A DNA stretch of 64,000 bases from a virus. Every line of letters starts with the position of its first letter. Positions within the stretch are counted from its first letter, which is position 1. The position numbers and the translations under genes were made by a program. The stretch lies in UHGV virus genome UHGV-0057547; one strand, given 5' to 3'. Below are positions 32,748 to 64,000 of the stretch, one piece after another. The notes under the pieces were generated by a model. The model made no database searches. It was not told the origin of the DNA and saw only the letters and a program-made list of their open reading frames with translations.

Positions 32748-32863
32748 TAAACATCCATAGATTCGCACTGGATTTTTTGGGACTTAATTTATATCCGTTC
32801 CAAATTATATTGCTTTATATGATGAATATAATGTATAGCACTTGCCTAATATGTGCAAGGGGT
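32748..32863 (+). CDS. terL: Terminase large subunit, exon X (LxLxPFQ motif and start of P-loop ..CARG)
   Basis: Open in the phase set by exon A; ends ggggt before a P1/IGS gctcc and P2 hairpin. Confidence 0.5.
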
Positions 32864-34032: not shown

Positions 34033-34135
34033 TTATCGAAATCGTATATGACAGCAATATTCCTTTGTTGTAAAGCAATATTATATCCAAATAGTTTAAT
34101 TGTAGTTTCTTGTTCAACTAAGGAGCAAGCGAGAT
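34033..34135 (+). CDS. terL: Terminase large subunit, exon e34 (P-loop ..LSKSYMTAIF.. and LIVVSCSTKEQAR Q-motif)
   Basis: Joins exon X in phase to give ICARGLSKSY Walker A-like loop; ends gcgagat with IGS gtctc. Confidence 0.5.
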
Positions 34136-35567: not shown

Positions 35568-35631
35568 TACTAATGAAACAGTGGTTATCTTTAACAATGG
35601 TAGTACCATTCAAGTTTAATGCTTTGCACAT
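35568..35631 (+). CDS. terL: Terminase large subunit, exon e35 (boundaries approximate)
   Basis: Only open frame; phases fit e34 (1-nt) and e38 (2-nt carry-over); P1 gcacat/gtgtgt. Confidence 0.35.
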
Positions 35632-35877
35632 TGAGTAATTAGTGTGTATAACCGATTGAATTGCTTGTAAATCCTAAAGCTAACTAAACTACAACGTAAC
35701 CTGAAAAGGTAAGCGTGAATGTAGCGAAAGCAGAAAAAATTAGTTAGATGGTATATGGTTAAATCCTAAGTACTTTTACAATGGAAGTCTAGCAGGGAAG
35801 ATTCTAAAATTATTTAAATTAAATATTTGACTTTTAATAATATAAGTTGTATAATATAAATAAATGGAGGTGATAAT

Positions 35878-36834
35878 ATGTCAAAAATAATGTGGGATGA
35901 AAAATCAATAAAAAAATTTGTTGAGCAATATAATCATGAATTCATTGAAATTATAGAATTTAATAACATAAGAAGTTTAATAAAAATTAAATGTAAAAAT
36001 AAAAAACACAAACCATTTGAAATAAAATTTACATCATTTAGACAAACTATGCTAAAAAATGGAAATTCTTGCAAAGAATGTAAAAAAGAAGCAAAAATGT
36101 TAAAAAGAGAAGATGTAGAAAACCTAATTAGAGAAAGAGGACTTATTTGGCTAGAGGGAGAGTATATAAGTAATGATACAAAAAATTTATTAGTATGGTG
36201 TGGAAATATTAATCATGAACCATTTTTAACAAGTCAAAATTATATATTATGTAATAATGGTAATAGTTGCAAAAAATGTGGTATAGAAAATAATGCAAAT
36301 AACAAAAGACTTTCATATGAGTATGTATATAACTATATAAAAAATGAGGGTGATGAACTATTATCAAAAACTTATGTAAACAATTCACAAAATTTAAAAA
36401 TTAAATGTGGTAAATGTAATAATGTATTTGAAACTTCATTTGGGCACTATCAAAATAAAGATAGAAGATGCTTATGTAAAGCTCAATCAAGAGGAGAATA
36501 TGAAATTAAACGAATATTTGATAAATATAATTTAATTGAAAATGTAGATTATGAATGTCAAAAAAAATACGAAGGATTAATTGGGGTTGGTGGTAGAAAA
36601 CTTTCTTATGATTTCTATATCAATAATACATTAATAGAATATCAAGGTTCTTATCATGATGGAACTGCTAGAAAACAAACAGATGAAGGATATGAGATAC
36701 AAAAGGAACATGATAAAAGAAAAAAAGATTATGCTAAAAATAATAACATTAATTTATTAGAGATATGGTATTGGGACTTTAATAATATAGAAAATATACT
36801 TATAGAAAATTTTAATTTAAATAATAATGAATAA
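35878..36834 (+). CDS. Homing endonuclease, Zn-ribbon repeats plus DUF559/Vsr-like domain
   Basis: Same modular architecture as 34392..35327; C-terminal LSYDFYI...IEYQGSYHD...NLLEIWYWDF. Confidence 0.55.
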   Translation: MSKIMWDEKSIKKFVEQYNHEFIEIIEFNNIRSLIKIKCKNKKHKPFEIKFTSFRQTMLKNGNSCKECKKEAKMLKREDVENLIRERGLIWLEGEYISNDTKNLLVWCGNINHEPFLTSQNYILCNNGNSCKKCGIENNANNKRLSYEYVYNYIKNEGDELLSKTYVNNSQNLKIKCGKCNNVFETSFGHYQNKDRRCLCKAQSRGEYEIKRIFDKYNLIENVDYECQKKYEGLIGVGGRKLSYDFYINNTLIEYQGSYHDGTARKQTDEGYEIQKEHDKRKKDYAKNNNINLLEIWYWDFNNIENILIENFNLNNNE

Positions 36835-37086
36835 CCTTCAACGAACAAGTATCCTAGTAGTCTAGGTAGTGGTCGGTATCCTTAGTAAAGGATAATGATA
36901 TGTTCTGCTCTCATGTGAAAGCATGAGCAGTTTATGTGATTAATTAAAATTCACAAATAAACGGTATAAGGTATAACGAACCTTATATGAACACAAATGC
37001 AGTAAACGCTTCTCAAAATACAAGAGGTAAATTTTTCATATCACTTTACATTTTTTAATAATTAGAGTATAATATAAACAAAGGGG

Positions 37087-37956
37087 GTGATTGAATTGAA
37101 ATGGACTAAGGATATGGAGCAATACTTAATTGATAATTATAATAAATTAACTATTGAAGAATTAGCTAAAAATATAGGAGTAACAAAATCCTCAATAATA
37201 AATAAAGCTTTTTCATTAAAAATAACAAATAATGTTAAAAATAAAGATAGAGGAAATATTAATATATTTAAAAATATAAATTCAGAAGAAAGTGCTTATT
37301 GGTTAGGATTTATATATGCTGATGGTTATATAGTTAAAAGTGAAAATGATAAAAAACATCATAATTATGAATTAGGTATAGAACTTCAAGAATCTGATAT
37401 TTCTCATTTGAAAAAATTTAATAAAATATTTAATGATTATTATAAAATAAAAACAAGAATCAGAAAAATGGATTCATTGGATATTTTAAATGGAAATGAA
37501 GTTTCAAATAGATTAAATAAAACTTGTTTGATAAGAATATATAATAAAGAAATAGTTAATGATTTAATAAAAAATAATATTGTTCAAAATAAAACTAATT
37601 CAGATATATTTCCTATTATAGATGATGACAATATGTTTTTACATTTTTTAAGAGGATATATTGATGGCGATGGTTCTTATGTTGTTGATAGTAAAAATAG
37701 ATACATAATATCAATTCAAGGTAATAATAAAAAATGTTTTGAATTTATATCTAATAAGTTATTAACAAGTTTTAATATTAATTCATATATAACAAAAGAT
37801 AAAACAGGTTGGAAATTAAATATAAGAAAAAAAGATGATGTTTTAAAATTAATAGATTTAATGTTTAATAATTCAAATATTTATTTAGATAGAAAATATG
37901 AGAAAGTAAAAGATATGAAAAAAGCCGTCTTTAATAGAAATATTAAAGATAATTAG
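37087..37956 (+). CDS. LAGLIDADG homing endonuclease (double-motif, single-chain)
   Basis: Two LAGLIDADG motifs: LGFIYADGYI and LRGYIDGDGS; GTG start after RBS aaaggggg. Confidence 0.7.
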   Translation: MIELKWTKDMEQYLIDNYNKLTIEELAKNIGVTKSSIINKAFSLKITNNVKNKDRGNINIFKNINSEESAYWLGFIYADGYIVKSENDKKHHNYELGIELQESDISHLKKFNKIFNDYYKIKTRIRKMDSLDILNGNEVSNRLNKTCLIRIYNKEIVNDLIKNNIVQNKTNSDIFPIIDDDNMFLHFLRGYIDGDGSYVVDSKNRYIISIQGNNKKCFEFISNKLLTSFNINSYITKDKTGWKLNIRKKDDVLKLIDLMFNNSNIYLDRKYEKVKDMKKAVFNRNIKDN

Positions 37957-38280
37957 AGAACAAAATCGGTCATAGTAAATCGTAAGATTAAGCTGATAAG
38001 AGAGCCTAAGTCCTTATAGGATATGGTAATACCGAGGTAAGATAGAAAATTAAAAAGTTCTATCCACCGTAACGCATAGAGATTGAACCTTTGTGAGAAC
38101 TATTATACAATAGTTCTTTTTTAATTACAAAGAATAAAATATCTCCAAGAGTGTTCTCCACCTTATCATTAAGTTGAAGGTGAAAATATATGCTGGACTG
38201 GGTATGAATTGACATACCATAATGCGAGGAAACTCCTAGAACTAGAGGATAAAAAGCCTTTAGGATAACAAAACGTTAAG

Positions 38281-38325: not shown

Positions 38326-39865
38326 AATATATAGCTCCCTATGTTTATAAAAAGCATAGAAAAACTCTTTAATTGCTGGAAACTCCTAAAGTCCTATAAA
38401 CTACAACATGATTAGAAATAATGAGTGTGAATGTTACGAAAGTAGAAAAAATTATAGGAATGGTATATGGTTAAATCCTAAGTACTTTTACAATGGACAA
38501 TCAGCAGGTAAGATTTATATTTATTTTACTTTACTTTTAATAATTAATTTTGTATAATTTAAGTAAATGGAGGTGATAAAATGTTAAAATATAATAATGA
38601 TTATATTATCAATTATATAAATGAAAATTATAAAAATTTTAAAATAGTAAGTATAGATGGTAATGGAAAGGAAGCTATTGTAACTTTATGGTGTGGCGTT
38701 AGTGGTCATAAACATATACAATGCACATTTGCTAATCTTTTATATAAAGATAGTTTTCACTGTAGAGAATGTAAAAAAGATGATAAGATAAACGAAATAA
38801 AAAAGATTATAGGTGATGAATATCAAATAATCTCAATAGATTATATTAGTAATGATTGGATAAGAAGTAGAGCTATATTATGGTGTGGAATAGAAGGACA
38901 TGAATATATTGATGTATCTTTTAAATCAATAATAAATGGAAATATTATTGGATGTAAATTATGTAGAAAAAATAAACATATATTAAAAATAAAAGAAAAT
39001 GTAGAAAAAGTTAATAAAAAATTAATAGAAGTAAAAAAATATAATGAAAAAGATTATCACAAATCAAGAATAATAGTATCTTGTGGTAATGAAAAACATG
39101 AATTAATAGAGACTTCTTTAAATAAAATTATAAATTCAAACGTTAAATGTAAGGATTGCATAAAAGAAGATAATATTAATAAAATGATGCTATATATAAA
39201 TTCTACTCAATACAAATTTAATAAAATTGTAAAATATTGTGAATCAGATTATATAAAAAGTATGGTAGAAATAACATGTCCAAAAGATGAAACCCACATA
39301 TTTACAATGAGATTTTCTAATTTTAAATATGAAGGTAAAAGATGTCCTCATTGTGGTATGACTTATGGTGAACAAGAAGTTGCAAATGTATTAAAAAGAT
39401 ACAATATAAAATATAAATTTCAATATAAATATAAAGATTGTAGATTTATAAATCCTCTTCCTTTTGATTTTTATTTACCTGATTATAACATATTAATTGA
39501 ATACGATGGTAAACAACATTATGAATCAGTAGATTTATTTGGTGGAGAAAAAGGTTTTAAATATACAAAACAAAATGATGGAATAAAAAATCAATACTGT
39601 AAGAATAATAATATAAAATTAATAAGGATACCATATTGGTGTTTTAATAATATAGAAGAAATATTAATTAAAGAATTAAAAGTAAACATAAATAAATATG
39701 AATAAACTTCAACGACTAGAACGTAAGTTCGTAGGGTGTAAGTGATTGACACTCGAAATGGGAGTTACCTAATAATAGGTAGTGATATAGTCTAGTCTCA
39801 TATGAAAGTATGAGCAGTTCATAAGAGAACGTACATAACGTAGCGAATTATGTAGAATATAACGG
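38326..39865 (+). mobile_element. Group I intron carrying a Zn-ribbon/DUF559 homing-endonuclease ORF
   Basis: P1 ggagt/gctcc, P2 ctatgtttataaaaagcatag, conserved cores, P7 GACTA/TAGTC; ends ...gaatataacgg. Confidence 0.6.
38581..39705 (+). CDS. Homing endonuclease, Zn-ribbon repeats plus DUF559/Vsr-like domain
   Basis: Four Cys-pair modules; C-terminal PLPFDFYLPDYNILIEYDGKQHYE...NNIKLIRIPYWCF. Confidence 0.6.
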   Translation: MLKYNNDYIINYINENYKNFKIVSIDGNGKEAIVTLWCGVSGHKHIQCTFANLLYKDSFHCRECKKDDKINEIKKIIGDEYQIISIDYISNDWIRSRAILWCGIEGHEYIDVSFKSIINGNIIGCKLCRKNKHILKIKENVEKVNKKLIEVKKYNEKDYHKSRIIVSCGNEKHELIETSLNKIINSNVKCKDCIKEDNINKMMLYINSTQYKFNKIVKYCESDYIKSMVEITCPKDETHIFTMRFSNFKYEGKRCPHCGMTYGEQEVANVLKRYNIKYKFQYKYKDCRFINPLPFDFYLPDYNILIEYDGKQHYESVDLFGGEKGFKYTKQNDGIKNQYCKNNNIKLIRIPYWCFNNIEEILIKELKVNINKYE

Positions 39866-40021
39866 TTTTGATACATTAAACTCAGTATTAAGACCATTCT
39901 TAAACTGTGTTAGAATACCAAAATTTAAGAATAGAGATGATGGAAAATATGCAGATTATCCATCAGAGGAAAACCAAGAGATTTATTTGAGCAGTGCATT
40001 AAAACTAGTGCAAACTATGGT
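39866..40021 (+). CDS. terL: Terminase large subunit, exon e39
   Basis: 52-codon open frame in AT-rich DNA; phases consistent with both flanking exons. Confidence 0.45.
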
Positions 40022-40341
40022 GAAATGTAGATAGCTATAGTTGAGTATCAATCAAAATCGGTCATATGTATAGTGATATACATGGTAAGAAAGACTAAGT
40101 GTTAATTTAACATAAGTTGATACCGAGGTAAGTTAAGGAACTAAAAAGCCTTATCCACTGTAACGCATAGAGATTGAACCTTTGCAAGAACTATTATATA
40201 ATAGTTCTTTTTTAATTGCAAAGAATAAAATATCTCCAAGAGTGATTGACACACGCTACATTTATTGTGTGAAAATATATGCTGAACTTATAGGAAACTA
40301 TAAGAACTAAAGGATAAAAAGCCTTTAGGATAACAATTTGG
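40022..40341 (+). mobile_element. Standalone ORF-less T-family intron (element T3); 5' boundary 40022 or 40033
   Basis: P1 atggt/gctat, caaaatcggtcatatg block, about 300 nt, shares covarying hairpins with T1, T2 and T4; both boundary choices give a consistent terL frame. Confidence 0.45.
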
Positions 40342-41428
40342 GTTCGAGAATCATTGGAGTTATGACCTCTATTCTTCCCATGTTAAGAAAATGTTAGCAG
40401 GTGATGATTATTTTGTATGTAATTTACCTTATCAATTATCTGCTTATCATGGAATATTAACTAAAAAAAGAATACAAGATATTTTATCAGATGAGAATAT
40501 GTCGGAAATATCATTTATGATGGAATTTGAAGCATTATTTTATTCTGATAAAGATACTAGTTATTTTAAATCAAGTGACATATTACCTTGTAGAACATTG
40601 GAATATGCATGGTATCCTCCAACACCTGAGGAATATTATAGAAATAAAAATAAAGAGAAAAAGAGTTATCATTTGAAGAAATTAAATGATAAAGAACTTA
40701 GAATAATTAGTTGTGATATAGCCTTAATGAATAGTAAAAATGGACATGACAACGATAATGCCGTATTTACTTTTATAAGAAGTATTCCAAAGAATCAAAA
40801 TTATATATCACAAGTTTTATGGCAGGAAACCTATGATGGTTGTACAGCTAAACAATTAGCATTAAATATAAAAAGATTATATTTTGACACTCAAAGTGAT
40901 TATATAGTACTAGATACTGCCGGTAATGGGATATCTGTGTTAGATGAGTTAGGTGAATATACAACAGATGTAGAAAGAGGAATAGTTTATCCTCCATTGA
41001 AAGCAATGAATGATGAAAAATATGAAGAACGTTGTGGTTATTCTGAGGCACAAAAATCTATATTTTGTGTTAATGGTAACTCAAAGTTTAACCACGAAAT
41101 TGCAGTAACCCTTAAAACAGCATTTCAAAATAAAACCATTAGATTATTAAAAACACAATTTGAAGCAGATGACTTTATAGAAGGATATCATAAGATGTCT
41201 CCTAAAGAACAAGCTGACAAATTAATGCCTTATATTCAAACTTCTTTAATGCAAGATGAAATAACTCAATTGGAATATGAAATAAAAGATTCTTATATTA
41301 AACTTTATGAAACCACAGGTAAACGTAAGGATAGATATTCAAGTTTAGCTTATGGTAATTATTTTATAAGAGAAAGAGAAAAAAAATTAAAGAAAAAGAA
41401 AAAAGGTGGATTAGCTAATCTATGGTAG
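40342..41428 (+). CDS. terL: Terminase large subunit, final exon (C-terminal RNase H-like nuclease domain)
   Basis: RIISCDIALMNS..GHDNDNA, LDTAGNGIS and DRYSSLAYG catalytic-Asp regions typical of TerL nuclease domain. Confidence 0.65.
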
Positions 41429-42364: not shown

Positions 42365-43679
42365 AACATATAGCTCCCTATGTTTATAAAAAGCATAGAA
42401 AACTCTTTTAATTGCTGGAAACTCCTAAAGCTCAATTCACTAAAACATAATCTGAAAATGATAAGTGTGAATGTTACGAAAGTAGAAAAAAGTAATTGAG
42501 ATTACCCAAGGTTAAATCCTAAAGGTGAATGAATGGACAATCAGCAACCAAGATTTTAAGTTTAATTCATTGATTTTTAATATAATATAAAATAAAGTGA
42601 GGTAATTAATATAGCATTAAAATGGACTGAAGAAAAAATAATAGAATTTATAAATAATGAAAATTATATAGTAAAAAAAATAATAAGTGGAATTGGAAAA
42701 GAAACGAGATTATTGGTATGGTGTGGTAATCCTAATCATAAACCATATAAAGTTATTTTTAATAATTTTAAAAGAGGAACAAGATGTCAGTCTTGTTATG
42801 ATGAAAGAAGAAGAAAATGGACTGATGAAATTATTAAAGAATATTTAGAAAGTTATAAATATAAACTAATAGAAATTATAAAATCTAAAGGCGTTCAATC
42901 TATTGTAAAAATAAAATGTCCTAAATGTGGATATGTATATACTATTAAATTTGATACATTTAGAAATGGTCGTAGATGTATGCAATGTTTTCTTAAAGAA
43001 AATAGAATTAGTGAAGAAGAAATAAAAAAAATAATAAAAGATAATAAAGATATATTAATAGATATTGAGTATCATAGTTTAGATAGTATTTTATATTTAT
43101 ATTGTAATAAATGTAAAAAAAATTATCCTATTACATTTTATTGGTATTTAAAAGGCGGAAGATGCAAGTTTTGCAAAGAATCAAGAGGGGCTAGAAAAAT
43201 AAGAGAATATTTAGAAAATAAACAATATAATTTTAAACAAGAATTTAGAATTAAAGAATGTAGATATAAATTTCCATTACCATTTGATTTTATGGTTACT
43301 ATAAATGATAATATTATTTTAATAGAATTCGATGGGTTAGAACATTATGAACCTATTGAGTATTTTGGAGGTATAGTTAAATTTAATGAAAGAAAAAGAA
43401 ATGATAATATTAAAAATCAATATTGTAAAGATAATAATATAAAACTTATAAGGATTCCATATTGGGAATATGACAACATAGATGAAATATTAAATAAAGA
43501 ATTAAACTTAAAATAAGGTTCAACGACTAGAGCGTAAGCTCGTAGAGTGTAAGTGATTGACACTCGAAATGGAGAGTATCTAATAATAGGTAGTGATATA
43601 GTCTAGTCTCATATGAAAGTATGAGCAGTTCATAAGAGAACGGATTAGGAGTAGCGACCCTAATTGAATACAACGTTTG
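42365..43679 (+). mobile_element. Group I intron carrying a Zn-ribbon/DUF559 homing-endonuclease ORF
   Basis: P1 ggagt/gctcc; cores as in the other type-1 introns; 3' end aacgtttg fixed by reading frame. Confidence 0.6.
42713..43516 (+). CDS. Homing endonuclease, Zn-ribbon repeats plus DUF559/Vsr-like domain; conserved N-terminal region extends to an ATA at 42611 behind a good RBS (possible start-codon mutation)
   Basis: TTG at 42713 is the first canonical start; upstream in-frame IALKWTEEKIIEF matches paralog N-termini. Confidence 0.5.
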   Translation: MVWCGNPNHKPYKVIFNNFKRGTRCQSCYDERRRKWTDEIIKEYLESYKYKLIEIIKSKGVQSIVKIKCPKCGYVYTIKFDTFRNGRRCMQCFLKENRISEEEIKKIIKDNKDILIDIEYHSLDSILYLYCNKCKKNYPITFYWYLKGGRCKFCKESRGARKIREYLENKQYNFKQEFRIKECRYKFPLPFDFMVTINDNIILIEFDGLEHYEPIEYFGGIVKFNERKRNDNIKNQYCKDNNIKLIRIPYWEYDNIDEILNKELNLK

Positions 43680-44523: not shown

Positions 44524-45098
44524 TTGAAAGGAGGTGTAATTATGAATAACAAACTTAGATTACCTATTAAAAGATTTGAAAGTACAGATGAAGTTTTAGT
44601 TAATACAAACTTTAAAAAAGTTAAAATATACATTATGCATACAGGTGAAAACCTTAATGGTTCTGTATTTTCAGTAGATAGTATAAATGATTCAATAGAT
44701 ACACTTGCAAACATTCCAATATTGGCATTTGTTGAAAAAACTGATGGACAAGATAACAAAGATTTTGCAGGACATGAAACTGATTTAGATATATTTACAG
44801 ATGAAGATGGAACAATTAAAGTAAGAGAATACTATAAAGAAGTACCTATTGGAGTAATACCTGAAAGTAATGATTATTTCTTTGAAGAAAAAGATGGAGA
44901 AACATACTTAGGGTGTTATGGTTACATATGGAAATGTTATTCTAATGATGCTTATGACATATTAGAAGAAGACCAAGAAAAAGAAGTCTCTATGGAAATT
45001 TATATAAATAATTGTTCTTATGATAGAAAACAAAGATGTAATATTAATAAATTTGAATTTCTTGGAGTTACAGTGTTAGGTGCTAAATACCCAGGAGT
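44524..45098 (+). CDS. Prohead protease/scaffold-like protein, exon 1
   Basis: Position between portal and capsid genes; exon ends ggagt paired to gctcc. Confidence 0.4.
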
Positions 45099-45491
45099 GA
45101 TTAGCTCCCTATATGGAGTGATTCATATAGCAAACTCTCTGAATTGCTTGTAAATCCTAAAGCTAACTAAACTACAACGTGATTGGAAACAATGGGCGTG
45201 AATGTGGCGAAAGCAGAAAAAATTAGTTAGATGGTATATGGTTAAATCCTAAGTACTTTTACAATGGAAGTCTAGCAGGTAAGATTCTAAATTACTATAA
45301 GTGATATGAATAAACTTCAACGACTATTGAAATAATTGTAAGAACCTTATTACAATTAAAGTAAAGTACATTCAAGTGAATGGAAGTAGAGAGTGTCTTA
45401 TTTAATTAATGTAAGATAATGATATAGTCTCAACGTTTAGCGAAAGCTAAAGAAGTTCATAAGAGAACTGCATAAGAATAACGAACTTATG
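45099..45491 (+). mobile_element. ORF-less group I intron (3' boundary within 45483-45509)
   Basis: P1 ggagt/gctcc, P2 ctatatggagtgattcatatag, complete 5' and 3' cores without ORF. Confidence 0.55.
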
Positions 45492-46707
45492 TGAAGATAT
45501 TGCTATGGGGGAAGATTGTGTACTTAGTATGAATTTTTCTAAAGAAGATAGTGAATATAAAGAATATTTATCTTCTGTTGAAAAATTAAATAAATTATTA
45601 AAATGTCAAAGAGAGGAGGGATTAAGTGTGGATGTAAATAAAGAAACTTCTACTGTTGAAAACAAAGAAGAATTTGCTGAAGAAAACAAAGATGAAGAAG
45701 TTTGTCCTGAATGTGGTGAAAATCCTTGTGTATGCAAAAAAGAAAATCATGCAGTTAATGATGATGAAGAAGATAAAGCAGATGACAAAAAAGATGATGA
45801 TAAAGAAGACGATAAAGACAAAGAAGATGAATCTTGTAAAAAGAAAAATCATGCAACTGAAGATAAAGCAGATGATGATAAAAAAGACGATAAAGCAGAT
45901 GACGAGGAAGACGACGACAAAGATGATGATAAATCAGATGAAGAAGATGACAAAGATAAAGACAAAGAAGATGAATCTTGCAAAAAGAAAAATCATACAG
46001 TAGAAGATGACAAAGCAGACTTTGGACTTTCTTTAAATAATACATTTAAAGCTATAAGAAAACAATTAGAATCTTACACTTATGAATATGTGAGCTATTG
46101 GGGTGACACTTATACTTGGAGAAAATATTACGTAGTAGAATTAATCCCTGAAGATTCTGTTGTTGTTATAGAAGATGAAGAAGAAAATGAATTCTATGGA
46201 GTAACTTATTCTATAAATAATGATGATGTTACTTTAGATTTGGATAATAAAGCATTATATATTCAAGAATGGAGACCTAAAGAAACTAGTTCTGCTAGAT
46301 TTGAAAATACTGATAAAAAAGAAAAATATACTGCTAAAGATGAAATGTATCAAGCAGTTGGAAAAGAATTAAAAGAACTTAGACAATTTAAAGCTGATAT
46401 AGAAGCTCAAGAAGAAAAGGCTCAATTCGATGAAAAAGTTAATGCTATCTTATCACAATTTGAATTCAATGAAGAAGAAACTTCTGATTTAGTAGAAAAA
46501 GTTTATAACAAATCAATTAATTTAGATATGTTTGAAACTTGCTTATTTGCTTTAGAAGCTAAAAAGAATAGAGCAGAAAAAGAAAAATTTGCTAAAATGG
46601 AAAAAGAAAACAGTTTAAATATAGTTGATTCTAAAAAAGAAGAACCAGCAAAACCAAAATCAAGATTTGATTATCTATTAAAAGAATTTGGAAACAAAAA
46701 TAAATAA
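45492..46707 (+). CDS. Prohead protease/scaffold-like protein, exon 2 (acidic tandem repeats, coiled-coil C-terminus)
   Basis: Three repeats of KEDESCKKKNH.(T/V)EDKADD; scaffold-like composition. Confidence 0.4.
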
Positions 46708-47737: not shown

Positions 47738-49092
47738 AACTTAGTTTACTAGACAGCCCCCTATGTTTGTAAAAAGCATAGCAAATCCTTTTAATTGCTG
47801 GAAACTCCTAAAGCTCAATTCACTACAACGTAAGGTTAAATCCTAAGCGTGAATGTTACGAAAGTAGAAAAAAGTAATTGAGATTACCCAAGGTTAAATC
47901 CTAAAGGTGAATGAATGGACAATCAGCAGGGAAGATTTTAATTAACACTTAATTTTTTATAAGTTTATGAGTATAATATAAATAAGTGGAGGTGATGAAA
48001 ATGACAAGAAAGATTTGGAATGAAATTACAATAAAAGAATTTATAGAAAATGAAACAAATTATAAATTCATATCAATGGTTAAATTAAATGGAATGAAAT
48101 CAATAGTGCTAGTATGGTGCGGTAATACTAATCATAAACCTTATAAAGTTCGATTTGATGCATTTAAAGGTACTTCTAAAAAAGAAGGAACGAGATGTGA
48201 ACAATGTAGAAGAGAAAAGGATACTATTTGGACTAAAGATGAAATTATAAAATATGTAGAATCTCAAGATTATAAATTTATAAGATTTGTAAAATTTAAT
48301 AAATATGCAAGTATAATAGAAATTCAATGTAATAAAGGACACGAATCATATGAAACATACTTTAGTAATTTCTATAATAATAGAAGATGTTTTCAATGTC
48401 ATATAATATGGTCTAAAAAAGATATTATTAATTTTATAGAATCTCAAAATTATAAATTTATAAGATTTATAACATATGAAAAAAATAATAGTTTAATAGA
48501 GATAAAGTGTCCTAAAGGACATATGAATCAAGTTAGATTTAGAAAATTTAAAGAAGGAACTAGATGCACAGAATGTAATAAGTCTAAAGGTGAGGAAAAA
48601 GTAAAAGATATATTAAAAGAAATGTGTATAGATTTTAAATCACAATACAAATTCAAAGATTGTAAATGTAAAAAAGAGTTGCCATTTGATTTTTACATAC
48701 CTTCATTAAATATTGCAATAGAATATGATGGAATACAACATTTTGAAATATTACCACATTGGGGTGGTATTGATAAACTTATAGAAACTAAAATACATGA
48801 TGAAATAAAAACACAATATTGTAAAAGAAAAAGAATAAAACTTATTAGAATTCCTTATTGGGAATTTAAAAATATAGAAAACATACTTATAAAAGAATTA
48901 GTGTTAAATTAGAATAACCTTCAACGACTAGAGCATAAGCTCGTACACTCAAGTGGGTGGAAATGGAGGATACCTAGAAATAGGTAGTGATATAGTCTTG
49001 TCTCATGTGAAAGCATGAGCAGTTCATAAGAGAACGGATTAGGAGTAACGACCCTAGTCGAAAATAAACGCAGAACTGATTTTGCTGAATGG
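47738..49092 (+). mobile_element. Group I intron carrying a Zn-ribbon/DUF559 homing-endonuclease ORF
   Basis: P1 ggggt/gcccc; P2 ctatgtttgtaaaaagcatag; 3' end ...gattttgctgaatgg fixed by frame. Confidence 0.6.
47986..48912 (+). CDS. Homing endonuclease, Zn-ribbon repeats plus DUF559/Vsr-like domain
   Basis: ELPFDFYIPSLNIAIEYDGIQHFE...KRIKLIRIPYWEF. Confidence 0.6.
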   Translation: MEVMKMTRKIWNEITIKEFIENETNYKFISMVKLNGMKSIVLVWCGNTNHKPYKVRFDAFKGTSKKEGTRCEQCRREKDTIWTKDEIIKYVESQDYKFIRFVKFNKYASIIEIQCNKGHESYETYFSNFYNNRRCFQCHIIWSKKDIINFIESQNYKFIRFITYEKNNSLIEIKCPKGHMNQVRFRKFKEGTRCTECNKSKGEEKVKDILKEMCIDFKSQYKFKDCKCKKELPFDFYIPSLNIAIEYDGIQHFEILPHWGGIDKLIETKIHDEIKTQYCKRKRIKLIRIPYWEFKNIENILIKELVLN

Positions 49093-53107: not shown

Positions 53108-53253
53108 ATGGCTACACTATTTGCTATAAAAGATGCAATAGATTTAAAAATAACTAAAAAAGGTGAATCAGCAGTTTTCACTACAATAGACTACTTAAAT
53201 GAATGTCAAATACAAATGGACTCAGAACAAGTATATGCTCTTAAAAAAGGAGT
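53108..53253 (+). CDS. Major tail protein-like, exon 1
   Basis: Exon ends ggagt paired to gctcc; spliced product ends in an Ig-like-looking C-terminal exon. Confidence 0.4.
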
Positions 53254-54610
53254 AATTTGCTCCCTATGTAAGTAAATTGCATAGCAAATCCTTTTAATTG
53301 CTGGAAACTCCTAAAGCCTTGCAAACCACAACGCAACTTGAAAAAGTAAACGTGATGGTGACGAAAGTAGAAAAAATTGTAAGGATTACCCAAGGTTAAA
53401 TCCTAAAGGTGAATGAATGGACAATCAGCAGGTAAGATTTATATTTATTTTACTTTACTTTTAATAATTAATTTCGTATAATTTAAGTAAATGGAGGTGG
53501 TAGATATAAAATGGACAGAAGATAGAATTAAAGAATATGTTGAAAATCAAGGATATACTTATATAAAAAGAATTGAAGGAAAAGCAAGTATGTCGATTAT
53601 AGAAGTTTGGTGTGGAAATCTTAATCATAAATCTTATAGGGTTATGTTTAAAAATTTTAAAGGTAATAAAGCAAAAAAACCAACAAGATGCCCATATTGT
53701 AGTAAAAATAAAAAATTAACCATTGAAGAAGTAAGAGTATTTGTTGAAAAATATGATTTTAGTTTATTATCTGTAGAATATATTAATAATAGAACTCCAT
53801 TAACACTACAATGTAAAAATGGACATATATTTTCAATAAGATTAGATAATTTTAAACAAAGTTTAAAATGTCCAATGTGTTATAGACATTATGGTGCTTA
53901 CACCGAAGATGAAGTTAAGCAATACCTTGAAAGTTTTGGTTATGAATTACTGAATAAATATATAGATATACATAAAAAAATAATAATTAAATGCCCTAAA
54001 GGTCATATTTATAAAACTTCATTTAATAGTTTTAAAAATAATGGAACTAGATGTTCTATTTGTAGAAAATCAAAAGGTGAAGAAAAAATATCTAAAACAT
54101 TAAAAGAATTAAAAATAAAATTCATAAGTCAATTTGTATTCGATGATTGTCAATATAAAACATATCTTCCATTTGATTTTTATTTACCTGAATATAATAT
54201 ATTAATTGAATACGATGGGATTCAACACTATGAACCTGTAGACTTTGGTGGTAAAGGAAATGAATGGGCAAATAAACAACTCGAATTAACAAAAATAAAA
54301 GACAATATAAAAACACAATATTGTGAAAATAATAATATAAAACTTATAAGAATATCTTATTGGGAATTTGATAGCATAGAAAATATATTAAGTAAAGAGT
54401 TAAAAGTAAGAAAATAAATATGAATAAACTTCAACGACTATTCCGTAAGGAAGTAAAGCCACAAGCTATTGGTGGAAGAAATGGAGGATACCTAGAAATA
54501 GGTAGTGATATAGTCTGTTCTCATGTGAAAGCATGAGCAGTTTATATTGAATGAGTATAAACGATGTATGTGTAGCGAACATATGTGAACACAAAGATAA
54601 CTATATATCA
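53254..54610 (+). mobile_element. Group I intron carrying a Zn-ribbon/DUF559 homing-endonuclease ORF (3' end approximate)
   Basis: P1 ggagt/gctcc, P2 ctatgtaagtaaattgcatag; cores and P7 present. Confidence 0.55.
53491..54417 (+). CDS. Homing endonuclease, Zn-ribbon repeats plus DUF559/Vsr-like domain
   Basis: YLPFDFYLPEYNILIEYDGIQHYE...NNIKLIRISYWEF. Confidence 0.6.
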   Translation: MEVVDIKWTEDRIKEYVENQGYTYIKRIEGKASMSIIEVWCGNLNHKSYRVMFKNFKGNKAKKPTRCPYCSKNKKLTIEEVRVFVEKYDFSLLSVEYINNRTPLTLQCKNGHIFSIRLDNFKQSLKCPMCYRHYGAYTEDEVKQYLESFGYELLNKYIDIHKKIIIKCPKGHIYKTSFNSFKNNGTRCSICRKSKGEEKISKTLKELKIKFISQFVFDDCQYKTYLPFDFYLPEYNILIEYDGIQHYEPVDFGGKGNEWANKQLELTKIKDNIKTQYCENNNIKLIRISYWEFDSIENILSKELKVRK

Positions 54611-56502: not shown

Positions 56503-59500
56503 GTGAGTGAATTTGATATAAGAATTGGTACGCAACTAGATACTAGTAAAGCGTTACAACAATTGATGGAATTCGTCAAAAAATATGACAATAAAGAAAA
56601 GATAAATATAGACATAGGCCAAACAAAAGGTGCTAATAACATAAAAAACACAACCAAAGCTATGAAAGAAATGCAAAAGATAGCTAAGGCGTTAGGAAGC
56701 ACAAAGATTGACATAGGTGGCAATATAGGTAAGGCTACTGGTGAAGCTACTAAATCATTAGAAAATAGTATAGACAAACAAGCCAAATCTATTGCCAAAA
56801 TAACTAGTAATGCACAAAGAGATTTAACTAAAGATGCTCAAAAAGGTATTGGGAATAGTCTTAAAGGTATCAATGCAGAAATGAAAGATACCCAAAGAAA
56901 TGTCGAGAGAATGATTAGTACTCTTGAACGAGCTAAGAAAGTTGAATTAATAGACCAAAAAGGTTTAGATGAAGGGTTAGCTAAATTAAAAGATATGAAA
57001 GCTAATCTTAATATAGGTAATATTGACAATGTAGAAAAAAAATTAGGGGAAGTAGCAAGTGACTATAAGAAATTAATGACAGATGCAACTAAGGAAGCAT
57101 TTAATAATGTTGAAGTATCAGGGTTATTAGAAGACTTAAAAGTTGTCAGAGAAGCTATGTCAGCTAAAAACATGGATTTAAGTGGTGTTGATACTTTAAT
57201 TTCTAAAGCTAAACAACTTACTTCTTTAAGTGTTGACCAAATGTTACAACAGTACAAAGAATTAAGACAAGTATTTAGTAAAGAATTAAAGATACCATTA
57301 GGTTTAAGTGGCATAATGAACGCTGAAACTGCAATTAAAAATGTTCTAGATTATAAAAACAAACTAACTGCTAAAGTTTCAGTTGAAACAAATTCAGAAC
57401 AAATAGATATTTTAAAAGATAAAATAATAAGATGTGATGAAGTTGTTGAACAACTTAGAGGAGATTTAAACTTAGTAGGTAGAAGTACAGCATTAAATTT
57501 AATGGAACAAGCTAATGAAAGAGAATTAGATACATTAAGCGCTAAATTAAAAAAATGTAAAAATGATTATGCTAGTTTAGAAAAAGAAAGAGAAAGATTA
57601 AATAAAGATAGTAGATACCTTGGAACAGAAGATTTAAACAACATAGAGAAACAATCATTAGCCATAAAGAAAAACCTTGATAGTTTAAATGTTGGAAATT
57701 TAAATACTGATAAAATAAATAAAGTTACTGGTGACATAGATAATTTAAGAAAAACAATAGAATCAACTGGTAATTCAGCTAAAAAATTAGATATAGAAGC
57801 AACAGTTAAAGTAGATATGAAAAATGCTCAAGACCAATTAAATGGTATGTATTCTGCTTTAATAAAATCTAATAAATCTACCGTAATGGTTAAAAAATAT
57901 AAAGATGAATTAGAAGGATTATTTGATTTATCTAAGACTAACCCAGGTGTAGCACTAGACAAAATAAGTGGTTTTATAGAAAAAGTAAATAAAGAAGCCA
58001 AGAATAAAGGTTTAGGTAAAATAACTGGTGGTTTAGACCAATACAAACAATACTTAAAAGATTATGAATCATTAGTTAAAAAAGCTAGTGGTACTACTGA
58101 TATTGGTTTTGCAAAAGCTTACAAATCAGAAGTTACACAAATAGAAAAAGCATTAGACCAATTAGAAAGTGGATTTAACCAAACTCAAAAATCTATGGCT
58201 AAATCTTTGAGATTAGAGTCAATTAATAAGAATACTCAAGAATTTATTAATCAAGTTGAGAAATCTATTAAGAAAACTCAAGAATATAAAAAAGAATTAC
58301 AAACTCTTAATAATGATATAAATTTTGATGGTCTTACTTCTAAATTAGGTCAAAAAGTCAAAGAAGAATTTGACGGAATGATTAATAAAACTAATCAATT
58401 AGAAAAAAGACTTGGCAATATGTTATCATCAGGTAACATAAATACTACTGAACTATCTAAGTTAAAATCAGAACTTGAAAGTACTTTTTCCGGACTTTCT
58501 AAACTTAAGGATACTAGTATAAAAATTAAAACTGATGAAACTGTATCAGGACTTAATAAAATCAAAAAAGATTTAGAAACATTAGGACAAGATACTAGTC
58601 AAATAGAAAGAGTTATTAACGCATTAAAAGAACTTAAAGCCAATTTCAATGGTGGTACAGCAGGTTATAAAGAATTAGCCAATGGAATAAAATCTATTGG
58701 AAAAGATAATAACTTAGAAAAACTAAATAGTTCTTTAGAAAAATCAGTTAAGAAATTTAATAACTTAGCTAAAGCTGTCGGAGAACTAAAGGTTAAAAAT
58801 ATAGGTAATATAGACCAAGGTGCTTTTCAATCTTTAGATAGTCAAGTTGCACGAATACAATCTCATATAGAAGGTTTAAATAAAAATGATATATCTTTAA
58901 TAGATGTTAAAAAAGTTGAAGCAGAAGTAAATGAATTAAGCAACTGTGTAGAAAAAATGAGTAGTGAATTAACTCAATATAGTAAATATTTGGAAGAATA
59001 TAAAAGATTATCTAGTCAAGCAGGTAAAACAAATGATGTTAATTTAGCTACAAAATATCAACAAGAAGCAGAAGGTATAAAAGGTGTATTAACTCAATTA
59101 GAAAGTGAGTTTACACAAGCTCAAAAATCTATTGCTCAAGGATTAAAAACTGATGCTTTCTCTAATGCTAATGAAAAAATGTCTTCTGAAATTAATAAAT
59201 CAATTAAAACAGTTGATAATCTTAAAGAAAAACTTAATACATTAGATAAAGATGTACATTTTGAAAATATGACATCTGAATTAGGTAAAGAATTAAATAG
59301 TCAATTTGATACTTTAGCTAATAAAGGTGAAGAATTAAAAGATAAATTAAATAAAATATTAGCATCTGATAACGTAGATATTTCTGCTTTAAGTAAAATT
59401 AAAAAAGAAATAAGCGAATTTGCAAGTGAAGTTAATAATTTAAAAAATTCTGCAATGGATAATGTTATTAGAGAATCTTTTGATAACATTAAAATACCTA

Positions 59501-61630
59501 ATTTAAATAAACAACTAGAAGCCGTTAAAGATTTAATGTCACTTAAAAATATGGACACTAGTGGTATAGATACTTTAATAGAAAGAACTAAAAAATTATC
59601 AAGTTTAAGCGTAGATAAAATAGGTCAAGAGTTTAAGGAAATACAAAATGCACTTGGTAAAGAAATTAATTTACGTTTAGGTTCTAGTGGTATCAAAGAT
59701 ATAGAATCTGCATTAAAAGTTATATTACAATATAGAAATGAATTAAAAAATAAAATAGCAGTTGAAACAGATTCGTCAAAAGTAAAAGACCTTAATAACC
59801 AATTAGAAAAAACTGAGAATATAATAGAAAAGCTTAAAGGTCAAACTAGTGGTGGACTTGGTGCAAGTTTAATTAGCGATGCTAATAATAATAACTTAAA
59901 ACAATTAGAAGATACTGCTAATGGATTAGAGAAAACATTCTCTAATTTAGAAAATGAAGTAAATAAATTAAACAGCGAAGCATTGAATAAGGTTGACATA
60001 AGTCAATTAAGGGAAATGAATGAAGTTGTTAATGATGTAAAGAAAAATTTAGCATCTATTGGAGAAGGAAATGTTAATGTTGATTCAATAAATAAAACAG
60101 CACAAGATATAGAAAAATTAAAAAGACTAATAGAAAACACTAAAAAGACAATTAGTGATATGAAATTAGAAGTTTCATTTAATATTAAATCAAATGAAGC
60201 AGAACAATATTTAGCAGGTTTTGAATCAGCTTTATTAAGATTAGGTAAATCAACTAGTGGAATAAATGATTTAAAAAGTGAATTTGAAAGTATAAAAAAT
60301 TCAGCTAACGGAAATTTAAGTAGTGCCATAAAAATGATTGATGACTTTATTAATAAATTAAAACAAATGGGTAGCAAACAAGGTCTAGGTAATATAAGTG
60401 GTACTATATCTCAATATAAACAATATGCTAAAGAATTACAACAAGCTATGAGTGGAGCATTGAAATCTAGTGGTTCTGATACAGCTAAAGGATTTGAACA
60501 ACAAGCTGATAGAATAAAAAATGCTATGCAACGTTTAACTTCAAGTTTCAAAGAATCACAAAGAGAATCGGCTAATGCTTTTAACAGTAGTTCATTTAGT
60601 GGTTTTTCTTCTAAATATGAAGCTGAAATAAATAAAGTTGAAAAAAGTATAAACAGATTTAAATCATCAATGCAAAATTTAGATAAAGCTGTAAACTTCA
60701 AAAGTTTCCAAAGTGATGTAGGTAGAGGTTTATCTGAACAATTTGACCAAATAATGGCGAAAGCCGAACAATTAAGAGATAAACTAAAGAGTGCATTATC
60801 TTCAGGTACATTTGATATAAGTGAAATAAATAGAATAAAAGATGAATTAAAACAAGTTGAACAAGAAGCAGATTCATTAAAACAAAAATCTATTGTATTG
60901 AAATGTGCCGAAAGTATATCTGAATTAGAAAAGCTTAGTAGTAAACTAAGAGATATAGGTGGAGATACATCACAAATAGACAGATTAAGAGATGAATTTG
61001 TTTCACTTGGTTCAGGTATAAAAGAGGGTACTGCTGGAATAGATGATGCAATTTCTAAACTGAAATCTTTATCTTCGGAAGCACAAAGAACTTTTAGTTC
61101 TTTTGAATCATCTACTGGTAAAATAGGTTCTTTTGGTTCTAAAATACAAGGTTTCTTTGGTTCTATTAAGGATTCATTTAGGAATTTTACTATTGGTGAA
61201 TTAATGGCTGATGGTATAAATCAAGCTGTTTATCAAATAAAAGATACTATATCAGGTTTAGATGAAGCAATGTCCGAATTTAAAAGGGTTGCTCCTGATA
61301 ACTTTAGTTTAAACACATCTAACTTACAAAGTGTTGCTAATGAAGCAAGAGAAATAGGTATTAGTGTTGGGCAATCAGTAGAAGATGTTATCACTGGAAT
61401 GAGTACTGCATTACAAGCTGGTGCAGGCGACATTAAAACAGCTTCTGAAATAGCTAAAAGTTCTGCTATATTCCAAAATGTTACAGATATGGATGCAAAA
61501 AGTGCCTCAAAAGCTATTTCTTCAATGGTTAACCAATATTATGATATGGATTCAGCATTAAATCAAGTTGACCACGGTGTAGGTAAATCTGTAAAAGGAT
61601 ACAATAACTTAACTGAAGCGATGGATTTGG
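56503..61630 (+). CDS. Tape measure protein, exon 1 (about 1709 aa; internal approximately triplicated coiled-coil module)
   Basis: Length, coiled-coil repeats, position; ORF read-through of 11 codons into the intron; P1 tggt/gccg. Confidence 0.6.
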
Positions 61631-62695
61631 TAATTGATTTGCCGTTTATATTAGAAATAATATAAATTATTAGAGGGCAAAATCGGTGAAGACTAAATAT
61701 TTTAATTTATTTACTTTTAATAAAAAATATGGTATAATAATATAAAATAGGAGGGGATATAATGAGAAGATTGAGTTATGAATATGTAAAAGAGTATATA
61801 GAAAATTTTGGTTATAAATTATTATCAAAAGAATATAAAAACAATAAAACTGAATTAGAAATACAATGTAATGATTGTGGGAATATATTCCATATGAGAT
61901 TTAACAATTTTAAAGATGGTAAACATAGATGTGAATGTAAGAGCAAACCATTAGTTTTGACATATGAATATGTTAAAAATTATATTGAATCATGTGGATA
62001 TAAATTATTATCAAAAGAATATAAAAATAATGCAACCTATTTATTGGTTTGGTGTGGAAATCCTAATCACAAACCTTATAAAGTTAAATTTAATAATTTT
62101 AAAGATTGTAATAGTAGATGTCCTGAATGTAATACAACTTCAAAAGGTGAAGAAAAAATAAAAGAAATTCTAATAAAATATAATATAAAATTTAATCAAC
62201 AATATTTATTTAATGATTGTAGAAATACAAGACCACTTCCATTTGATTTTTATTTACCACAGTATAATATTACAATAGAATATGATGGGAGACAACATTA
62301 TAAATTAGATTGTTTTAATATGAATTTATTAGATTTAATGAATTTGAAATATAATGATAATAAAAAAACACAATATTGCAATAATAATAATATAAAACTT
62401 ATAAGAATACCATATTGGGATTTTAATAATATAGAAAAAATACTTAAAAAAGAATTAAAAGTAAATTGAATAAAGTACAAGTTAATACCGAGATAACTTA
62501 TTAGATTACGAAAAGGCTAATAAGTATTGTAGAGCATAGAGGATGAATAAATATAACTCCTCCAAGAGTGTCCTCCATCCTAACGTAAAGACGAGGATGA
62601 AAATATATGCCATACTGAATTGGAATAGACCAATTGATGAAAATGAGGGAAACCTCCAGAGCATAAGATAAAAAGCTTATGGATAATAACAATAG
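61631..62695 (+). mobile_element. Type-2 (T-family) intron carrying a Zn-ribbon/DUF559 endonuclease ORF; 3' part is element T4
   Basis: P2 tttatattagaaataatataaa, caaaatcggtgaagactaa block, internal promoter, ORF, then T4 with covarying hairpins. Confidence 0.5.
61762..62469 (+). CDS. Homing endonuclease, Zn-ribbon repeats plus DUF559/Vsr-like domain (shortest paralog)
   Basis: PLPFDFYLPQYNITIEYDGRQHY...NNIKLIRIPYWDF. Confidence 0.55.
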   Translation: MRRLSYEYVKEYIENFGYKLLSKEYKNNKTELEIQCNDCGNIFHMRFNNFKDGKHRCECKSKPLVLTYEYVKNYIESCGYKLLSKEYKNNATYLLVWCGNPNHKPYKVKFNNFKDCNSRCPECNTTSKGEEKIKEILIKYNIKFNQQYLFNDCRNTRPLPFDFYLPQYNITIEYDGRQHYKLDCFNMNLLDLMNLKYNDNKKTQYCNNNNIKLIRIPYWDFNNIEKILKKELKVN

Positions 62696-62708
62696 AAATT
62701 ACGCTGGT
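62696..62708 (+). CDS. Tape measure protein 13-nt micro-exon (aaattacgctggt) between two introns
   Basis: Flanked upstream by T4 3' end and downstream by P1 loop/IGS gccag complementary to its ctggt end; frame depends on exact splice sites. Confidence 0.35.
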
Positions 62709-63099
62709 TAGAATTAGCCAGGCTATATGGAGACATATAGTACAAATCTCTTTTGAATTGCTGGAAAGGACTTAGAGCCTATTGAACTACAACGTAGATG
62801 GAAACATCAAACGTGAATGTTAAAAAATCAATAGGATTGTTCAATCAGCAGGTAAAATTCTAAGTGATAATTTATCATATGAATAAACTTCAACGACTAT
62901 CCCTTGGATTTGCTAATTTAGTAAATCAATAGGAGTACGGCTCAAGCGATTGGAGTGGGTGAGAATCCCTTAAATGGAAGTGGAAGAGGACTTATAAAAG
63001 TTCAAGATATAGTCTACTCTCGTAGGAAATCTACGAGCAGTCCTTTTTTTGGACGGTATGTATATAGCGAATACATATGAATATTAAGGAATAACTTCG
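62709..63099 (+). mobile_element. ORF-less group I intron in the tape-measure gene (3' end 63089-63099)
   Basis: P1 ctggt/gccag, P2 ctatatggagacatatag, full 5' and 3' cores, P7 caacgactatc...agatatagtctac. Confidence 0.55.
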
Positions 63100-63473
63100 C
63101 AATTTCATCTGATGGTGTAACAGAAGCATTACAACGTGGTGGTTCTGTATTATCTAACTATGGAGTAGATTTAAAAGATTCCATTGCAATGATAACTGGA
63201 GCAAATGAATCTTTACAAGACCCTGCTCGTATAGGTAATGGTTTAAAATCTATAGCAATTAACCTTTCAGGTATTAAAACAAATGCACAAACAGGTGCTC
63301 TTGAATTAAATAAAACAGCAAAAGCATTACAAGAAACTGCTAAAATAGATATATTTACTGATAAATCTAAAACACAAGTTAAAGATATTGTTAGTATACT
63401 AGATGAAGTAAAAGATAAATGGGCTTCTTTGACTGATGTTGAACAAAAAGGATTATCAGAAGCCATAGCAGGT
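63100..63473 (+). CDS. Tape measure protein, further exon
   Basis: Open TMP-like frame from the intron end; exon ends gcaggt before another intron. Confidence 0.5.
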
Positions 63474-64000
63474 AGTATGTAAGATTTTGTCTTATTAATT
63501 TATTGAATAGACATTATACAAAAATAGTAGTATAATATAAGTAATAAATTAATAAGGAGGGAACTTTCATGGGGAAAAGTTCAAAAGATAAATATGAATT
63601 AGGTAAAGAAATGTTTTTACAAGGGAAAACAACAATGAATATAGCAAAAGAATTAAATATATCAAGAAGTAGATTTTCAAGATATTTAAGGGAGTGTGGA
63701 ATAGATAGTCAACAATATCATAAATTTCCTATAGATGAAAATGTTTTTAATGTAATAGATACAGAAGAAAAAGCGTACTGGTTAGGATTTTGGTTTGCAG
63801 ATGGATATGTAAGTTCAAATAGAAATACAGTAGGTATTGATTTAAAACCGAGCGATTTAAATCATCTAAATAAATTAAAAACATTTTTAAAATGGAAAGG
63901 CGATATAAAAGTAGAAGAAACTAGATGTAGATTAAATTTTAGAAATGATAAAATTAAGAATGATTTAATAAAATATGGATGTGTTCCAAATAAATCATTA
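63474..64000 (+). mobile_element. Start of a further intron in the tape-measure gene carrying a LAGLIDADG endonuclease ORF (continues beyond window)
   Basis: Internal promoter + RBS then ORF; intron identity inferred from context. Confidence 0.4.
63569..64000 (+). CDS. LAGLIDADG homing endonuclease (partial, runs off the window)
   Basis: First LAGLIDADG motif LGFWFADGYV; N-terminal HTH-like region. Confidence 0.6.
   Translation, partial: MGKSSKDKYELGKEMFLQGKTTMNIAKELNISRSRFSRYLRECGIDSQQYHKFPIDENVFNVIDTEEKAYWLGFWFADGYVSSNRNTVGIDLKPSDLNHLNKLKTFLKWKGDIKVEETRCRLNFRNDKIKNDLIKYGCVPNKSL

Follow-up and report, generated by a model that had tools for sequence, protein, structure and literature searches.

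A phage tail tape-measure gene with a probable 13-nt coding exon between two unrelated group I introns

How is a tail tape-measure protein (TMP) read from a gene that two introns interrupt at sites only 13 nt apart? UHGV virus genome UHGV-0057547 raises this question near the 3′ end of the 64,000-nt stretch that we analyzed (one strand, 5′ to 3′; hereafter the window). There, all on the + strand, lie TMP exon 1 (56503-61631), intron 1 (I1; 61632-62695, 1064 nt), the 13-nt micro-exon aaattacgctggt (62696-62708), intron 2 (I2; 62709-63089, 381 nt), and exon 3 (63090-63473, 384 nt), followed by the 5′ part of intron 3 (I3; 63474-64000, cut by the window end). The boundaries, RNA structures, covariation, and independent occurrence of I1 and I2 are shown by the sequences. 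Reading-frame tests, alignment with homologues, alleles, and pairings together make it very probable that two unrelated group I introns, each structurally intact, flank a real coding exon. The two introns would have been acquired independently and inserted 13 bp apart, with I3 a further 384 nt on, and full-length TMP would require precise splicing of both I1 and I2.

The open reading frame (ORF) at 56503-61665 is the 5′ part of the tape-measure gene, its last ~200 residues matching positions 2-84 of the PF10145 profile; past t61631 it runs on for 11 extra codons to a taa stop at 61663-61665, inside I1, and the frame from 63102 matches PF10145 positions 93-201. Exon 1 ends ...atg gat ttg gt, 2 bases into a Val codon, which the micro-exon continues as gta aat tac gct ggt (V N Y A G), and exon 3 opens aat aac ttc gca att tca (NNFAISS; NNFAISSDGVTEALQRGG...SEAIAG). 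Joined in silico, exon 1, the 13 nt, and the sequence from 63090 stay in frame (...NLTEAMDLVNYAGNNFAISSDGVTEALQRGGSVLSNYGV...). With both introns precisely removed, the predicted mature junction is ...ggatttggt^aaattacgctggt^aataacttcgca... (^ marks a splice or insertion site here and below), the predicted product reads ...EAMDLVNYAGNNFAISSDGVTEALQR..., and a single predicted tryptic TMP peptide, GYNNLTEAMDLVNYAGNNFAISSDGVTEALQR, covers both junctions. The spliced product matched PF10145 in one stretch (profile positions 2-201, 78.0 bits, cut-off 33.2), the separate exons scoring 20.4 and 43.2 bits, and it matched TIGR01760 tape_meas_TP901 (53.7 bits, cut-off 28.8); with both cut-offs passed, the interrupted gene is that of a phage tail tape-measure protein. 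The original prediction, made by a model from the sequence, had the frame resume at 63100, but exon 1 plus the 13 nt joined to 63100 is out of frame with many stops, and the correct position is 63090. Just one other join keeps the frame, a 14-nt micro-exon with 63100; it was rejected on the intron-less alleles and on its PF10145 score (63.8 vs 78.0 bits). Exon 1 by itself accounts for 1,709 residues of what is a very large TMP, and in the related locus L001 another TMP-region ORF 3′ of the introns, called at >2,100 residues, runs off the locus.

By alignment, the 13 nt would complete the Val and encode Asn-Tyr-Ala-Gly of AMDLxNYAGNNFAIS, the most conserved motif of the domain. NYAGNNFAI is invariant, without gaps, in five aligned proteins, namely the spliced product and the uninterrupted homologues P0002, P0003, P0004, and P0006, which read ...AMDLANYAGNNFAISS.... 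Other homologues are ORFs that stop or start at the introns: P0001 and P0009 end inside I1 (...MDLVIDLPFILEII), P0005 and P0008 end at I2 (...MDLVNYAG), and P0007 and P0010 begin in the 3′ end of I1 and run directly into NNFAISS. The homologues were found with a spliced-protein search, and IMG/VR and metagenome contigs were scanned for the junctions.

All four allele states are present in related gut-metagenome contigs. Neither intron occurs in L001-L003 or in L015 (atggatttagtgaattatgctggcaataatttcgca), where the sequence continues after exon 1 as ...gat tta gtg aat tat... (L015, L001). I1 occurs by itself without an ORF in L004 and L005 (294 nt) and in the more distant TMP of L014 (308 nt), with its ORF in L011, and again in L012, whose locus covers just the 3′ part of I1; I2 occurs by itself in L006 and L021. 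Both introns around the same 13 nt are found with the I1 ORF in the window, L008, L019, and L020, with I1 reduced to 351 nt in L009 and L010, and in L018, where the 5′ end of I1 was not located; apart from the window, this junction is therefore carried by six other public contigs from different samples, some of ~173 kb. Because each intron occurs without the other at its own site, I1 and I2 are separate elements, and the four allele states set both insertion sites to the base (consensus ...ttggt^[a/g/c]aattaYgcNggN^aataaYtt...). GGT stands at the I2 site in every I2-bearing allele and GGA, GGG, or GGC in alleles without I2, which fits the need for U at position -1. That the 13 nt form a micro-exon, as originally predicted, is thus borne out by frame, homologues, and allele series. 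Recurrence of the junction, the RF00028 E-values, and the covariation described below also tell against a chance pattern.

I2 is a conventional group I intron. It starts tagaattagccagg..., its gccag pairs with the preceding ctggt to give the P1 that had been foreseen for an ORF-less group I intron from 62709, and in a search of a 431-nt slice RF00028 matched it over the full model (1-253) at 62699-63037 with 72.7 bits (E = 1e-18; gathering score 50). It has a P7.1/P7.2-like insert, P9.1, P9.2, and a terminal G63089; the 5′ site carries a U·G wobble in P1, the boundaries equal the gap against intron-less alleles, and an in-frame tag at 62709-62711, its first codon, stops read-through. RNAalifold on four I2-family members kept P4-P6, P9, P9.1, and P9.2, with 21 compensatory pairs. 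I2 is 76% identical to the intron at 32392-32690, the sole RF00028 match in the whole-window scan. This I2-like intron, at 32402-32747, interrupts a terminase-like gene (FYR^LNIHRFALDFLGL) and ends ...catatgaacatttag^, aligning with ...catatgaatattaagg^ of I2; its homologous 3′ tail is therefore further evidence for the end at G63089, which was set by alleles L004, L015, and L021 and with which PF10145 scoring agrees. The end at 63099 first proposed for I2 was wrong, the true one lying 10 nt upstream. RF00028 missed both I2 and I1 in the 64-kb window scan at the gathering score and in a scan of 61400-64000 at E <= 10, and found neither in a 7.3-kb slice of L010, despite a copy of I2 with 97% identity within it. 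Such misses of real group I introns in large slices look like a speed-filter artifact, and the rule that no Rfam match means no intron was rejected, given that I2 was detected in the short slice and missed in larger ones.

I1 ends ...aacaatag with terminal G62695, and its elements comprise P1 (61628-61633/61639-61644), P2 with a GAAA loop, and P3-P9.2. Its sequence in the window would by itself allow the boundaries to shift by 1-2 nt, because intron and micro-exon both begin with aa. Group I requirements, a U at -1 and a terminal G, place them at 61631^61632 and 62695^62696 (uggU^aa...caauaG^aaau, with U·G at the 5′ site), and the intron-less alleles L006 and L015 support this placement. The original prediction thus had the I1 end and its endonuclease right and its start one base early, 61631 being the last base of exon 1. 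We aligned five family members, their P5 loops trimmed, and wrote 12 helices onto the alignment (P1, P2, P3, P4, P5, P6, the pseudoknot P7, a P7.1-like hairpin, P8, P9, P9.1, and P9.2); 99.4% of cells were paired, and 23/70 pairs were compensatory. P7 is GCAUA/UAUGC, unchanging in the five sequences, and by analogy this assignment would be a double swap of GACUA/UAGUC in I2. The ORF-less homologue in L004 (4724-5017) aligned over the full length of RF00028 with 37 bits (E = 4.5e-8), and the window copy with its 778-nt ORF cassette gave no RF00028 match. In its 3′ domain, I1 shares 80-85% identity with two introns of the AR9/PBS1 topoisomerase II gene, and it appears to be a group I intron of a divergent phage family that also occurs in Bacillus phage AR9.

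How could two ribozymes share so short an exon? P1 of I1 pairs UGGU^AA (61628-61633) with UUGCCG (61639-61644), and AAAU of the micro-exon (62696-62699) pairs with AUUU (61637-61640), immediately 5′ of the GCC to which exon 1 is bound; this P10 has a compensatory change, from AAAU:AUUU in the window to AAAC:GUUU in L014. After 5′ cleavage the I1 guide would align both exons, in the classical P1/P10 arrangement on one guide sequence. At the other end, P1 of I2 pairs cuggu^ua (62704-62710) with uagccag (62715-62721) around a GAAU loop, with the wobble U62708·G62717 at the splice site, as a local 7-bp hairpin of -8.2 kcal/mol. It covaries as well, CUGGU:GCCAG in the window being replaced by GCGGGU:GCUCGC in L013, a distant TMP whose I2-family intron interrupts exactly the same codon boundary (NYAG^NNYAISS). 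Each end of the micro-exon would then be read by a different ribozyme, bases 1-4 by the I1 guide and bases 9-13 by the I2 guide, and because these segments do not overlap, either intron could splice first. Self-splicing of I1 and I2, like its order, is what we infer from sequence.

Several observations weigh against this account. I1 lies under the RF00028 gathering score (37 vs 50 bits), and I2 has no convincing P10. No shuffled alignment (0/500) reached the covariation observed for I1, a control whose significance is overstated because the five homologues are related; sliding the partners by 1-3 columns left 35-44% of cells paired and 0-2 compensatory pairs, a control free of that weakness, but with the structure written on one of its sequences, which favors the true over the slid percentage paired. 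A search with the spliced protein returned no protein >90% identical across the junctions and none attributable to a spliced transcript. In P1 of I1 the exon takes part in just four base pairs, of which two are wobbles (a duplex of -2.9 kcal/mol), and both 5′ splice sites read UGGU^, which makes cross-recognition possible: the I1 guide binds either site about equally (-2.9 vs -3.1 kcal/mol), and the last bases of exon 1 (UUGGU) bind the I2 guide at -4.8 kcal/mol, compared with -7.1 for the guide's own site. Mis-splicing or exon skipping is possible at this locus. The arrangement might then be real and its splicing error-prone or alternative, many transcripts skipping the micro-exon and giving a truncated TMP, as a tolerated cost or as a control of TMP dosage. 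The shared UGGU^ and the guide energies speak for such a view, and so do precedents: natural exons of 23-34 nt were skipped experimentally (PMC10136302), engineered Tetrahymena introns skip a 24-nt exon stepwise, with the upstream junction as distal 5′ site (PMC10136302), and ~47% skipping was reported for the SIOphi polymerase gene (PMC11878797). However, the skipped product is out of frame and gives no functional alternative protein, P1 of I2 is a stable local hairpin, and, because I1 and I2 come from separate families, a "single large ribozyme" like the one proposed for the near-identical introns of Twort is less likely here; we regard a substantial share of skipped transcripts as unlikely.

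Two further readings deny the micro-exon or the splicing itself. I1 and I2 could form a nested intron (twintron) or one composite intron, with 61632-63089 (or to 63099) removed at once and the 13 nt intronic. The introns are indeed just 13 nt apart, the I2 guide has a possible partner in the last bases of exon 1, and tandem group I introns are on record as skipping the exon between them in Twort orf142 and in the 23S rRNA gene of Coxiella (PMC10136302), as well as in phage SIOphi (PMC11878797). Removal in one piece, however, joins exon 1 straight to exon 3, with a frameshift and a stop after 10 codons (VITSQFHLMV), whereas the 13 nt completes Val and encodes the NYAG that is invariant in uninterrupted homologues. 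Moreover, I1 alone (L004, L011) and I2 alone (L006, L021) stand at exactly their own sites, and therefore neither was inserted inside the other. The label twintron was rejected, both introns being complete, with exon sequence between them and each found alone in relatives. Comparative evidence (separate alleles, NYAG, and frame) thus supports the originally predicted micro-exon over a nested intron, which we consider highly improbable. Just as hard to credit is a dead or split gene, in which the introns no longer splice and TMP is made in fragments or is absent from this genome. Gene callers do give separate ORFs (P0001, P0005, P0007, P0010), and I1 is below the Rfam threshold; yet the 5′ end of exon 3 lacks both a start codon and a ribosome-binding site, the exons stay conserved and in frame, compensatory changes keep the RNA helices, and therefore point to selection on ribozyme folding, and the arrangement recurs in seven contigs from different samples, ~173 kb among them. 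TMP is normally indispensable for a long-tailed phage, which also counts against a dead or split gene.

What could move such a pair of introns? I1 contains, within a cassette at ~61703-62480 in its P5 loop, an ORF of 235 aa (61762-62469, + strand) with two Zn-ribbon modules and a C-terminal Vsr-like (I-Bth0305I-like) domain as predicted from its model. The ORF matched PHROG 559 (E = 3.8e-57), PHROG 9084 "homing endonuclease" (1.5e-27), and PHROG 7140 "intron encoded nuclease", and had no above-threshold match in Pfam, NCBIfam, or PDB sequence searches. An AF2 model built from seven paralogue sequences (pLDDT 83) had Vsr (1cw0) and I-Bth0305I (3r3p) as its best PDB matches in Foldseek (prob 1.0, TM over target 0.52-0.71, E only ~0.02-0.03). 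The model predicts a homing-type nuclease with a Vsr/I-Bth0305I-like fold, and the PHROGs label "HNH endonuclease" for this ORF family is probably wrong. The window holds seven paralogous intron nucleases with 1-3 N-terminal Zn-ribbon modules, all on the + strand: the I1 ORF and six in other introns, 37-48% identical to it (34392-35327, 35878-36834, 38581-39705, 42980-43516, 47995-48912, and 53491-54417). Their invariant C-terminal residues are D...ExDxxxH...D (also written D...E.xG..H...D..K). Upstream of the I1 ORF is a promoter-like site, TTTACT-17-TATAAT with TG before it (61710-61738, + strand), and an aggagg ribosome-binding site follows. The scan found 18 such sites vs 17 expected, i.e., not above chance in A+T-rich DNA, and this putative promoter inside I1 is only suggestive.

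I1 exists both with and without its endonuclease ORF, and I2 has none. The ORF-less I1 derivatives of L010 (6871-7221, reverse strand) and L014 (1030-1337) keep a TTTACT/TTGACA...TATAAT remnant in the P5 loop, which suggests that the endonuclease gene was lost from them by deletion, rather than never present. I1 may be mobile through its endonuclease. As intron homing generally proceeds, double-strand-break repair set off by the I1 enzyme would probably carry I2 along by co-conversion, because I2 is only 13 bp from the I1 insertion site. One can tentatively join these strands: the 13 nt may be the shortest phage or bacterial exon between self-splicing introns, kinetic competition between local and distal splice sites that share UGGU^ may set the TMP level through out-of-frame skipping, I1 homing may drag I2 along as a composite unit, and each intron may destroy or reshape the homing site of the other, which would make the locus a natural arena for competition between introns. 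This combined reading is possible, and its balance of probability is clearly on the negative side.

The TMP frame breaks once more after ggt at 63473, where a third, LAGLIDADG-containing intron had been correctly anticipated. Homologues without I3 read ...SEAIAGK(T/N)QA..., with IAGKTQAQVF... in P0004 and P0007. The I3 ORF, from 63569 and cut by the window end, matched LAGLIDADG_3 PF14528 over the 143 residues within the window (25.3 bits, cut-off 22.5) and PHROG 4645 endonuclease (4.2e-31). A complete copy of I3 in L001 (6618-7793) ends ggataacaaatcg^aaaaccc and has core motifs of I1 type: a UUGCCG guide, P2 with a GAAA loop, AUCGGUGAAG, AUACCGAG, GCAUAG, and GAAAAUAUAUGC. RF00028 found nothing at E <= 1 on the I3 core (L001 7480-7900). 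The core motifs, read by eye and carrying no score, suggest that I3 is an I1-family group I intron, and its LAGLIDADG ORF seems to occupy the P1 loop.

Scans by core motif, blastn, and nhmmer suggest ~16-17 group I introns in 34 kb (window 29450-64000, + strand), most with an endonuclease ORF. Their positions are approximate, with unrefined boundaries: 29450-31395, 31842-32054, 32402-32747, 32860-34032, 34130-35480, 35600-36950, 37000-38279, 38330-39860, 39990-40370, 42370-43650, 45095-45500, 47750-49050, and 53250-54600, plus the three in the TMP gene. Seven introns stand almost back to back in the terminase-like gene (32.4-40.4 kb), with exons of only ~50-130 nt. This intron density looks exceptional for a phage. 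Megablast against isolate phages matched intron cores only and returned no close relative of the window. Across relatives, the PF10145 domain of TMP has at least seven intron sites within ~270 codons: LQ^AGA (L001, from ~4617), TE^AMD (L016, L017), the I1 and I2 sites, GNGL^K (L010 and L017; I1-family, 305-aa ORF), the I3 site, and SAQRE^N (L004, from ~5532). Judged from these sequences, the conserved TMP domain is an intron hot spot. In L016 (~800-1000, reverse strand) and L017 (300-545), the same locus has a different tandem arrangement: another I2-family intron, with a Vsr-like endonuclease ORF, ends ...gaacaaaaagg, and after it come caatggatttagtgaattatgctggt (26-27 nt) and I2, which gives a second kind of micro-exon among the relatives. 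At the LQ^AGA intron of L001 (4610-6020), the conserved ALQAGAK needs a 5′ site after G (tta cag g^taat...aaacg^ct ggt), and the canonical U(-1) site (caggt^) would yield ALQVAK, with one residue of the conserved motif lost; that allele would have either a noncanonical 5′ splice site or an altered protein.

The 13-nt exon would be an extreme test of how much exon is needed, with four bases serving P10 of I1, five serving P1 of I2, and four to spare. Because four allele states and both ORF-containing and ORF-less I1 are available in public metagenomes, the locus offers a ready-made system for independent or joint intron gain, for hitch-hiking of an ORF-less intron on the endonuclease of its neighbor, and for micro-exon skipping as in Twort. 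It adds a tail tape-measure gene to the DNA-metabolism genes in which phage group I introns usually lie. It also holds a lesson for annotation, TMP being split by gene callers and introns well above threshold being missed under default Rfam filters; intron-rich phage genomes are probably under-annotated systematically.

How does the locus compare with known systems? Micro-exons this small were originally said to be rare in phages and bacteria, which is fair, the reported cases that we found having 23 and 34 nt (PMC10136302); for mitochondria the claim fails, since an exon of 1 nt between two group I introns is known there (PMC5436844). The 13 nt would be the shortest exon between group I introns that we could find reported for a phage or bacterium. 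For phiNIT1 rNDPL a "small exon" is reported, its size not stated in the main text (PMC11878797). Among the closest systems is Staphylococcus phage Twort orf142, which has three group I introns and a 23-nt exon between introns 2 and 3 (Landthaler & Shub 1999, as summarized in PMC10136302). It too is a phage tail gene with three group I introns and a very short, skippable exon needed for the correct product, whereas its exon has 23 nt against 13 here and its introns are a highly similar IA2 pair against two families here; moreover, the upstream intron here carries a Vsr-like endonuclease, and splicing here is deduced from sequence. The 23S rRNA gene of Coxiella burnetii, with two group I introns (IB2, IA3) around a 34-nt exon (Hicks et al. 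2011, cited in PMC10136302), shares with our locus unrelated tandem introns, a short exon, and a bacterial-type genome, but it is an rRNA gene with no reading frame at stake, and its exon is 2.6 times longer. In placozoan mitochondrial cox1 a single-nucleotide micro-exon lies between two group IB introns (PMC5436844), and there, as here, a second group I intron beside an existing one creates a micro-exon that restores a conserved codon; that case is organellar and anciently fixed, in contrast to a polymorphic phage population with four allele states and one homing endonuclease.

The ribozyme and the nuclease of I1 have relatives of their own. AR9 (L007, NC_031039 33668-38792) has two I1-family introns (~1818-2169 and 2266-2622) around an exon of ~96 nt (...YHPHGNASVYEALVKMYQPWYVNKSLIDAHG). 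The topoisomerase II (gyrA-like) gene of AR9/PBS1 thus resembles the TMP locus in ribozyme family and in tandem placement within one gene, its RefSeq CDS being a three-piece join, but it differs in its exon length, in having ORF-less introns of one family, and in being a DNA-metabolism gene. The I1 ribozyme family is thus common to gut-metagenome phages and Bacillus jumbo phages. The gene for I-Bth0305I (3r3p; Vsr-like "EDxHD") lies within a Bacillus phage group I intron. The predicted C-terminal domain of the I1 ORF superposes on this enzyme (TM 0.71 over target, prob 1.0), although the two share ~18% sequence identity (Foldseek E ~0.03) and the N terminus of the I1 ORF consists of two Zn-ribbon (CapR/treble-clef-like) modules. 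Tandem group I introns around a short exon are already known, and the present case is not categorically new; what is notable here, in comparison with these systems, is the combination of an exon shorter than any that we could find for a phage or bacterium, unrelated flanking introns, a tape-measure location, and a polymorphic allele series.

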